A stretch of 64,000 nucleotides of DNA, taken from Escherichia coli. GTDB taxonomy: Bacteria; Pseudomonadota; Gammaproteobacteria; Enterobacterales; Enterobacteriaceae. Shown here in pieces: positions 15,238 to 37,197 of the stretch; position 1 is the stretch's first letter; the number at the start of each line of letters is the position of its first letter. The position numbers and the translations under genes were made by a program. Below the pieces are notes generated by a model. The model did not search any database and had not been told where the DNA came from. It saw nothing but the letters and a program-made list of their open reading frames with translations. The DNA is taken from assembly GCF_044647545.1 (NCBI RefSeq), contig NZ_CP172818.1. One strand, 5' to 3'.

Positions 15238-15254
15238 TAAACATTAAATAAACC
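15238..15254 (-). promoter_or_regulatory. PhoP box (direct hexamer repeat GGTTTA-N5-TGTTTA) in phoPQ promoter
   Basis: Minus strand reads GGTTTATTTAATGTTTA about 60 nt upstream of the phoP start. Confidence 0.7.
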
Positions 15255-35047: not shown

Positions 35048-35881
35048 ATGCATGTTTTTGATAATAATGGAATTGAACTGAAAGCTGAGTGTTCGATAGG
35101 TGAAGAGGATGGTGTTTATGGTCTAATCCTTGAGTCGTGGGGGCCGGGTGACAGAAACAAAGATTACAATATCGCTCTTGATTATATCATTGAACGGTTG
35201 GTTGATTCTGGTGTATCCCAAGTCGTAGTATATCTGGCGTCATCATCAGTCAGAAAACATATGCATTCTTTGGATGAAAGAAAAATCCATCCTGGTGAAT
35301 ATTTTACTTTGATTGGTAATAGCCCCCGCGATATACGCTTGAAGATGTGTGGTTATCAGGCTTATTTTAGTCGTACGGGGAGAAAGGAAATTCCTTCCGG
35401 CAATAGAACGAAACGAATATTGATAAATGTTCCAGGTATTTATAGTGACAGTTTTTGGGCGTCTATAATACGTGGAGAACTATCAGAGCTTTCACAGCCT
35501 ACAGATGATGAATCGCTTCTGAATATGAGGGTTAGTAAATTAATTAAGAAAACGTTGAGTCAACCCGAGGGCTCCAGGAAACCAGTTGAGGTAGAAAGAC
35601 TACAAAAAGTTTATGTCCGAGACCCGATGGTAAAAGCTTGGATTTTACAGCAAAGTAAAGGTATATGTGAAAACTGTGGTAAAAATGCTCCGTTTTATTT
35701 AAATGATGGAAACCCATATTTGGAAGTACATCATGTAATTCCCCTGTCTTCAGGTGGTGCTGATACAACAGATAACTGTGTTGCCCTTTGTCCGAATTGC
35801 CATAGAGAATTGCACTATAGTAAAAATGCAAAAGAACTAATCGAGATGCTTTACGTTAATATAAACCGATTACAGAAATAA
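35048..35881 (+). CDS. mcrA: HNH endonuclease McrA (restriction of modified DNA)
   Basis: 277-aa ORF; C-terminal HNH motif HHVIPLSSGGADTTDNCVALCPNCHRELH; AT-rich. Confidence 0.85.
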   Translation: MHVFDNNGIELKAECSIGEEDGVYGLILESWGPGDRNKDYNIALDYIIERLVDSGVSQVVVYLASSSVRKHMHSLDERKIHPGEYFTLIGNSPRDIRLKMCGYQAYFSRTGRKEIPSGNRTKRILINVPGIYSDSFWASIIRGELSELSQPTDDESLLNMRVSKLIKKTLSQPEGSRKPVEVERLQKVYVRDPMVKAWILQQSKGICENCGKNAPFYLNDGNPYLEVHHVIPLSSGGADTTDNCVALCPNCHRELHYSKNAKELIEMLYVNINRLQK

Positions 35882-36278: not shown

Positions 36279-36329
36279 TTACTACATGTGTTAAATATTG
36301 TAACGGGCGTATAACACGCCCGTTGTTTT
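36118..36329 (+). repeat. attR-side copy of the 212-bp direct duplication
   Basis: Same sequence as 20943..21154, including the terminator hairpin. Confidence 0.85.
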
Positions 36330-36380
36330 ATTTATGTGGGTATTATTAATAGCACATTGAGCATATTTATATGAAGCCCA

Positions 36381-36704
36381 TTACTTGAGCCCATATGGGC
36401 ATATTTTTATAATGCAACTATTATGCAAACATTTATTTGTTATTTTGCTTTCTCCTGGAGGACACTCTTGACTGCTTTTGAGTAAACTCCATAAATCCTT
36501 GTTGAATGGTGCGATGTTATAAATAGTAATAGGATATTCTTTATCCTTAAGGATAATACCAGATTTAACCGGTGTAAATATCCTGCCAGGAGGAAGAAAT
36601 ATAGTGGATTGATACCAGATGATCATTTTCATATCACCCCATATGGCTGAAAAAGATATGCCGCATGTAGGTTGAATTACCGTGTCAATTACTATCCACT
36701 TCAT
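36381..36704 (-). CDS. iraM: anti-adaptor protein IraM (RssB inhibitor)
   Basis: 107-aa ORF in a strongly AT-rich islet with a long AT-rich upstream region. Confidence 0.75.
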
Positions 36705-37148
36705 TTGTTATGTCTTATCCCACGGTGCTTAATATAGTTCATTTGGATGTTCATTTCTTGATTTTGCATATGTGTATATTACTCCCAAAAAAATAAATTA
36801 ATTAAAAATTAATGTCATTATCTATATAAAACAAAATTTAAAGCAAGGAATCTCAATAGAGATTAAACAAAATGAGATTTAGTGAAAACATTAAATTATT
36901 CACTTCGTTTTAGATTTGTTTAGCTAAAATGTTATACATTCAAATGACTGAATATTCTGTAATTAAAACATAGCCTTTATGCTACTTTGAGCCAATTTGC
37001 TAAACATTATGGTTGGCCTTTTAATATAACGATAATGATGAATATAAGCATGACCTGAGAATAAGGTTTCAATTTTTTAGTTATATAAAAATGGTTAAAC
37101 CCGTTCCTGACTAAAATACATATAATCGGATGATGACTAAACCAAAAC

Positions 37149-37197
37149 ACATGTGCGTTAAGTATTGAAACGGGCGTATGGCACGCCCGTTGGTTTT
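37149..37197 (+). terminator. degenerate third copy of the icd 3'UTR/terminator (att-like remnant)
   Basis: acatgtgcgttaagtattgaaacgggcgtatggcacgcccgttggtttt matches the icd terminator region at roughly 85 percent; hairpin plus T-tract retained. Confidence 0.6.

Follow-up and report, generated by a model that had tools for sequence, protein, structure and literature searches.

The AT-rich DNA upstream of the RssB anti-adaptor gene iraM carries a direct repeat, CGTTTT-AGATT-TGTTTA (36906-36922, + strand; -218 to -202 from the iraM ATG), which we tentatively favour as a real, if weak, PhoP box. It is in reverse orientation to the gene and would be the distal one of two boxes in a PhoP-activated promoter. 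No other PhoP-like motif upstream of iraM, itself an AT-rich and horizontally acquired gene, scores as high or is conserved as well as this candidate. The repeat could be a low-affinity site for phosphorylated PhoP in the iraM control region, and its reversed orientation upstream of the core promoter would give it the place of the distal box. Phosphorylated PhoP would occupy 36906-36922, probably together with a weaker direct box at 36869-36853, and once bound would relieve silencing, bring RNA polymerase to a -10 element within 36865-36835, or do both. As a result, iraM mRNA would rise in low Mg2+, in acid or upon osmotic upshift, and IraM would stabilise RpoS. The analysis presented here shows the sequence of the repeat, its score, conservation and geometry, and the PhoP dependence of iraM comes from the literature; PhoP binding at the candidate, the position of the promoter and the role of each box are what we infer.

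Work of Battesti from 2012 is said to have found that iraM is silenced or repressed by H-NS independently of PhoP, and an exact PhoP site would let the PhoP input be separated from this H-NS silencing. The gene shows a ca. 20-fold PhoQ-dependent induction on osmotic upshift (PMC5740661), has been named among the targets of PhoP (PMC8483737; PMC10948607) and is upregulated in mgrB mutants (PMC10746255), so that a PhoP site is expected nearby. PhoP control of iraM is thus already known and has been published since 2008, which makes the finding of a candidate box largely ordinary, and pinpointing one weak box would only refine the known link between PhoP and iraM. Through this link, IraM connects the stability of RpoS to the PhoQ/PhoP system, a sensor of Mg2+, acid and osmotic stress. 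Full-text literature searches for a PhoP site or transcription start of iraM (ycgW) retrieved no site-level description, the supplements of Harari 2010 contain no entry for ycgW, b1160 or iraM, and a consensus screen for PhoP boxes in Shigella did not name ycgW (PMC5775216).

The iraM-ymgK islet and its candidate box

The window, i.e., the whole stretch of 64,000 nucleotides that we analysed, is a segment of E. coli chromosome that does not come from K-12 (K-12 EMG2 is 93.7% identical over 36300-37450). Its iraM open reading frame (36381-36704, - strand, with the ATG at 36704) carries this gene name in the annotation of matching E. coli genomes, and homologues together with the Pfam assignment place the product, an RssB anti-adaptor, in the PmrD-fold family PF11183. 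Upstream of the candidate repeat on the iraM strand lies ymgK, a 14-codon ORF (MFSKLAQSSIKAMF; 36963-37007, - strand) whose protein accession is identical across all 11 annotated genomes fetched, and the repeat itself sits between ymgK and iraM. ymgK may be a leader ORF of iraM, like idlP upstream of iraD, and if both genes share one mRNA, the candidate box would lie inside a transcribed leader. The same neighbourhood holds mcrA (35048-35881, + strand) and a duplicated icd 3' fragment, with ycgX, bluR and bluF as further neighbours around the locus. Both phoP (15177-14506, - strand) and phoQ (14506-13046, - strand) are found inside the window as well, the regulator gene phoP being only ca. 22 kb away from its proposed target iraM.

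Together, iraM and ymgK make up an AT-rich islet of ca. 840 bp (36327-37168) that is bordered by repeats of ca. 50 bp from the icd terminator region (AACGGGCGTATxxCACGCCCGTT; 36290-36340 and 37160-37210 of the window). An ST131 genome carries no such islet, and its icd fragment runs straight into the second repeat. By its appearance, the islet is what remains of an element that had inserted into the icd att site; when phage origin was checked, 36890-37010 gave no match in the phage collection.

The repeat had been pointed out in an earlier note on this DNA as a weak PhoP-box-like direct repeat with a period of 11 nt. We indeed find it as described, composed of CGTTTT (36906-36911), the spacer AGATT (36912-36916) and TGTTTA (36917-36922), though the end assigned to it, 36921, drops the final A at 36922. 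Its placement about 200 bp upstream of iraM in very AT-rich DNA is borne out by a distance of 202 to 218 nt from the ATG and by a local GC content of 23% (23-27% in the DNA used for shuffles). Its PhoP-box reading is on the + strand, so that the repeat is reversed, or antisense, relative to iraM. It matches (T/G)GTTTA-N5-(T/G)GTTTA at 10 of the 12 hexamer positions and has both GTTT cores at 11-bp spacing, the two deviations being the initial C and the missing terminal A of its first hexamer, CGTTTT. The suggestion that a response-regulator site would fit a stress-regulated anti-adaptor agrees with the published PhoP dependence of iraM but has to be qualified, given that the box is reversed with respect to iraM and that a single match of this kind lies at the margin of chance.

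PhoP-like sites were scored with a position weight matrix of 19 columns, for which Table 5 of PMC5775216 supplied nine PhoP boxes validated by gel shift. The phoP autoregulatory box of the window served as internal positive control and ranks first in the window at 18.8 bits. With 12.75 bits, the candidate takes rank 6 among ca. 128,000 window positions and is the top match of the iraM-ycgX intergenic region. Leave-one-out scores of the nine validated sites range from 7.8 to 21.5 bits, so that the candidate's 12.8 bits are in the range of weak real PhoP sites and well under those of strong boxes. At the level of the consensus, KGTTTA-N5-KGTTTA with two mismatches at most occurs 32 times in the window against 18.8 expected, the candidate being included with two mismatches, and GTTT-N7-GTTT occurs seven times against 3.4 expected, with the true phoP box and the candidate both among these matches. 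Upstream of iraM, the candidate is the only site with two GTTT cores at 11-bp spacing, and the matrix detects no PhoP-like box upstream of ymgK. Further away, the bluF-bluR intergenic region contains a match of 12.1 bits, ATGAATACGTTATGTTTAA (38904-38922, - strand), in direct orientation and ca. 140-160 nt upstream of the bluR start.

One match as good as the candidate turns up in dinucleotide shuffles of the local AT-rich DNA with P=0.06-0.11, and the caution of the earlier note that the match is weak and that AT-rich DNA gives chance hits was apt in this respect. Three matches of at least 11 bits within the region (100 bp) are reached with P=0.002-0.007 in local dinucleotide shuffles, and the AT-rich DNA found elsewhere in the window (5.5 kb, GC<0.36) has two matches of at least 11 bits and none of at least 12.75 bits. 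The single candidate match is hence marginal when compared to local composition, whereas the local cluster of three is unlikely to be due to chance, and the iraM upstream region appears enriched for PhoP-like motifs. It is a serious possibility, nearly as likely as the distal box that we favour, that the candidate is one of the chance matches of AT-rich DNA and that PhoP acts via the direct box at 36869-36853, via an unrecognisable site or indirectly. The shuffle result for the single match fits this alternative, as do the 31 other matches with up to two mismatches in the window, nearly all of which are presumably non-functional, but the clustering of three matches is improbable by chance.

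The base composition and periodicity of the repeat might also be read as a site for another protein, either an OmpR-family regulator of the CpxR kind or H-NS, for which the repeat would be part of a nucleation tract. On the iraM strand the sequence reads CTAAA-N5-CTAAA with a period of 10 bp, close to the GTAAA-N5-GTAAA of CpxR, and a region with 23% GC would suit H-NS, as would the reported H-NS repression of iraM. We consider this unlikely, as both CpxR-like half-sites lack the leading G, the literature retrieved contains no link between CpxR and iraM, and PhoP accounts for the known regulatory input.

Neighbouring boxes, putative promoters and conservation

The second PhoP-like box of the cluster, TGTTTA-ATCTC-TATTGA (36853-36869, - strand; 19-mer match 36852-36870), begins 36 nt downstream of the candidate, is in direct orientation to iraM and scores 11.8 bits. 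Its first hexamer, TGTTTA, is perfect and invariant among the strains compared, and its weak second hexamer is either TATTGA or CATTGA; the K-12 version, TGTTTA-ACATC-CATTGA, scores 10.6 bits. Exactly 12 nt downstream of this box, a predicted -10-like hexamer TAAATT (36835-36840, - strand) is invariant in 12 haplotypes. This spacing is that of Architecture I, in which a direct box precedes the -10 element by 12 nt (PMC3335776), and is also seen at the phoP promoter, so that the perfect first hexamer and the conserved TAAATT favour the view of the candidate as a chance match with PhoP acting from the direct box. This view has to contend with the poor second hexamer of the direct box, which lacks the core G, and with its lower score that falls to the said value in K-12, while the candidate has the highest score and is the only invariant box.

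A third PhoP-like match, GCTTTA-AATTT-TGTTTT (36828-36844, - strand; 19-mer 36827-36845), reaches 11.0 bits in the window and probably arises by chance. It was rejected as a functional site, with only 6.8-7.0 bits in K-12-type haplotypes and L012 and a 7-bp indel just downstream. The loss of this third box and the weakening of the second one in K-12, the strain for which PhoP dependence has been shown, were counted in favour of the candidate. Likewise rejected was a K-12-specific reverse match at -61 to -43, which is missing from the window haplotype and too near to the ATG.

Measured from the end of the reversed candidate, three -10-like hexamers follow downstream: TAAyaT at 40 nt, yATTGA, which has no T at -7, at 47 nt, and TAAATT at 65 nt. 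The first of these is the predicted -10-like hexamer TAATCT of the window (36860-36865, - strand), which overlaps the second box and is replaced by TAACAT or TAATAT in other strains. Among the three distances, only 47 nt falls in the published series for reverse boxes of 30, 37, 47, 48, 49 and 58 nt (PMC3335776). This series belongs to Architecture V of horizontally acquired genes, in which a reverse box precedes the -10 element by 30-58 nt, at distances of half-integral helical turns, and a second box covers the -10 element or lies downstream of it (PMC3335776). A scan for consensus sigma-70 promoters was uninformative in the DNA upstream of iraM, with 8 matches against 7.7 expected.

The candidate could alternatively serve the + strand, where a -10-like TACATT (36935-36940) lies 12 nt downstream of it and is kept in 12 haplotypes, though we regard such a function as quite improbable. 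Even less should be expected of its consequence, which would be an Architecture I promoter driving a new PhoP-activated RNA of ca. 250 nt antisense to ymgK that would end at 37169-37191 and, if true, could link the expression of ymgK-iraM in cis to the activity of PhoP. The geometry matches Architecture I and the phoP promoter of the window, the least variable block of the locus comprises this box and hexamer together with the initial 60 nt of the putative RNA, and a terminator-like hairpin with a T-run is present at 37169-37191 on the + strand. However, this hairpin is simply the duplicated icd terminator, no transcript, ORF of at least 40 aa or Rfam family was found in this stretch, and the fold of the putative RNA has a z-score of only -1.0. 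Most strains moreover carry a consensus TATAAT just 2 nt after the box, a position unfit for activation from there, and it is iraM that the locus is known to express in dependence on PhoP.

Conservation was assessed in an alignment of twelve E. coli haplotypes that are ca. 6% different overall. Both hexamers of the candidate are invariant in all of them, with a spacer SNP in one strain, and the candidate segment has the lowest diversity of the locus (pi=0.011). It is part of a block extending from ymgK through the candidate that varies less than the rest of the islet (pi 0.011-0.020; 0.036 for the iraM coding sequence). As the flanks of the candidate (80 nt; ymgK to the box) are conserved as strongly as the box itself, the conservation is no site-specific footprint and constitutes weak evidence, a point in favour of the chance match. 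Between the boxes and iraM follows a hypervariable stretch (36770-36834, - strand; pi=0.169) in which 44% of columns are variable and which contains an indel of 7 bp as well as a T-run that passes into a run of 3 to 10 G residues; the core promoter is unlikely to lie inside it. A contig scan for footprinting beyond Escherichia gave only E. albertii and a contaminant contig.

The low variation from ymgK to the box would also be compatible with a function of this block as RNA, in which case ymgK would be a leader ORF on a long mRNA of iraM, and the repeat would belong to a leader element. In line with this, AZT induces ymgK 96-fold together with iraM (39-fold; PMC11228462), and GCUAAACA (36925-36918, - strand) is perfectly complementary over 8 nt to UGUUUAGC in the ymgK start region (37006-36999, - strand), a pairing that is present in the minimum-energy fold. 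An 8-nt complement is nevertheless expected by chance in 300 nt of AT-rich RNA, and the one between GCUAAACA and UGUUUAGC is probably of this kind. In stability, the fold of the leader does not surpass those of shuffles (z=-0.67), the leader has no Rfam match, and its variation is too low for a covariation test, such that a role as RNA element appears highly unlikely to us.

Reverse boxes across the IraM family

At the sensitivity used, homologues of IraM (54-76% identity) occur in Escherichia and Shigella only. The paralogues found in prophages are opposite-strand morons. One type is located between the stx genes (stxAB) and nanS-p, the iraL type occupies the late region of lambdoid prophages between the antiterminator gene and DUF1737/lysis genes, and a third type lies beside nanS-p and an LpxR-family gene, while one IraM-family gene adjoins IS21 and a GGDEF gene. 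The closest relatives of IraM (70-74% identity) come from metagenomic contigs, where they are encoded ca. 245 bp downstream of a YmgB/AriR-family (ymgB-like) gene. Their coordinates are 999-1253 in L022 and 642-902 in L023 and L024, and this context is unlike the icd-adjacent or prophage ones.

Among the IraM-family lineages that could be fetched with enough upstream sequence, the best match to the PhoP matrix is reversed and ca. 91-117 nt upstream of the ATG in every lineage other than iraM itself except L008. The strongest of these boxes is that of the stx-phage type (L004; 1388-1404, 19-mer CTGTTTATTCTTTGTTTAA) with 19.5 bits. The box of the iraL and E. albertii type (L002 and L006; 1389-1405, 19-mer TTGTTTATTGTTTATTTAA) scores 16.5 bits, the closest relatives (L022 to L024) share the 19-mer TGGTTT(A/G)TTCTTTATTTAT with 14.5-16.8 bits, and the one of L010 (1385-1401) is degenerate with 9.6 bits. 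The end of the reverse box precedes a TATACT or TATGAT hexamer by exactly 49 nt in the types of iraL, stx phage and L010, and the start of the iraL mRNA determined by 5'RACE, ACATCACCAGCAAGG... (PMC4045071), identifies this hexamer as the -10 element. A reverse box at this distance, as these three types have it, is the geometry of Architecture V. The iraL paper itself does not discuss PhoP (PMC4045071).

The IraM of S. flexneri M90T is 61.7% identical to that of K-12 (PMC9496106), and expression of "ycgW" in S. flexneri Sf301 falls to 0.09 of the wild type in a phoPQ deletion (PMC5775216). This "ycgW" is probably of the iraL type, with the genes of M90T and Sf301 equated as we infer, and in this case a reverse-box member of the family would be PhoP-dependent in vivo. 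The recurrence of reverse boxes across the gene family speaks against the candidate being a mere chance match, by analogy only, since local alignments between the iraM upstream region and the promoters of its paralogues were no better than those with shuffles; for the same reason, the mapped iraL promoter is not transferable to iraM. Beyond iraM, most IraM-family lineages examined have reverse PhoP boxes, among them one that neighbours stx genes and others located in the late regions of lambdoid prophages, which suggests that phage-borne or mobile RpoS stabilisers are wired into host PhoPQ signalling.

Comparison with known PhoP-activated promoters

The phoP P1 promoter of the window, the prototype closest at hand, has its autoregulatory box (GGTTTATTTAATGTTTA; 15238-15254, - strand) as a perfect match 12 nt upstream of CATAAT. 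Like the iraM candidate, it is a direct repeat of (T/G)GTTTA hexamers with a period of 11 bp that is found by the same matrix, but it is perfect, in direct orientation and scores 18.8 bits, whereas the candidate has two mismatches, 12.8 bits and reversed orientation with respect to iraM.

Under the distal-box reading that we favour, iraM would resemble the Salmonella genes of Architecture V (pagC, ugtL, mgtC, pgtE, pagK and pipD), which similarly have a reverse box upstream of an AT-rich, horizontally acquired gene. The likeness extends to the second PhoP-like box, which at iraM overlaps a predicted -10-like hexamer, and the predicted -10 options of iraM at 40, 47 or 65 nt have to be set against the 30-58 nt of that class. 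Architecture II, in which an upstream second box is added, provides another parallel, as in virK this additional box overcomes H-NS silencing (PMC3335776). The AT-rich iraM upstream region would have a comparable layout with its direct box 12 nt upstream of the predicted TAAATT and the candidate further upstream, but differs from virK in that its proximal box is weak, with TATTGA or CATTGA as second hexamer.

Closer to home, iraL of E. coli CFT073 and Shigella as well as its relatives are paralogous anti-adaptor genes that have a reverse PhoP box, as proposed for iraM, though the boxes of the iraL and stx types are much stronger than the iraM candidate and lie ca. 100 nt from the ATG instead of ca. 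210 nt. The regulatory logic is the same at Salmonella iraP (Architecture IV), where PhoP activates an RssB anti-adaptor so that RpoS is stable in low Mg2+ (PMC5740661, PMC3335776), but iraP belongs to an unrelated protein family and its boxes are in direct orientation, unlike the candidate upstream of iraM.
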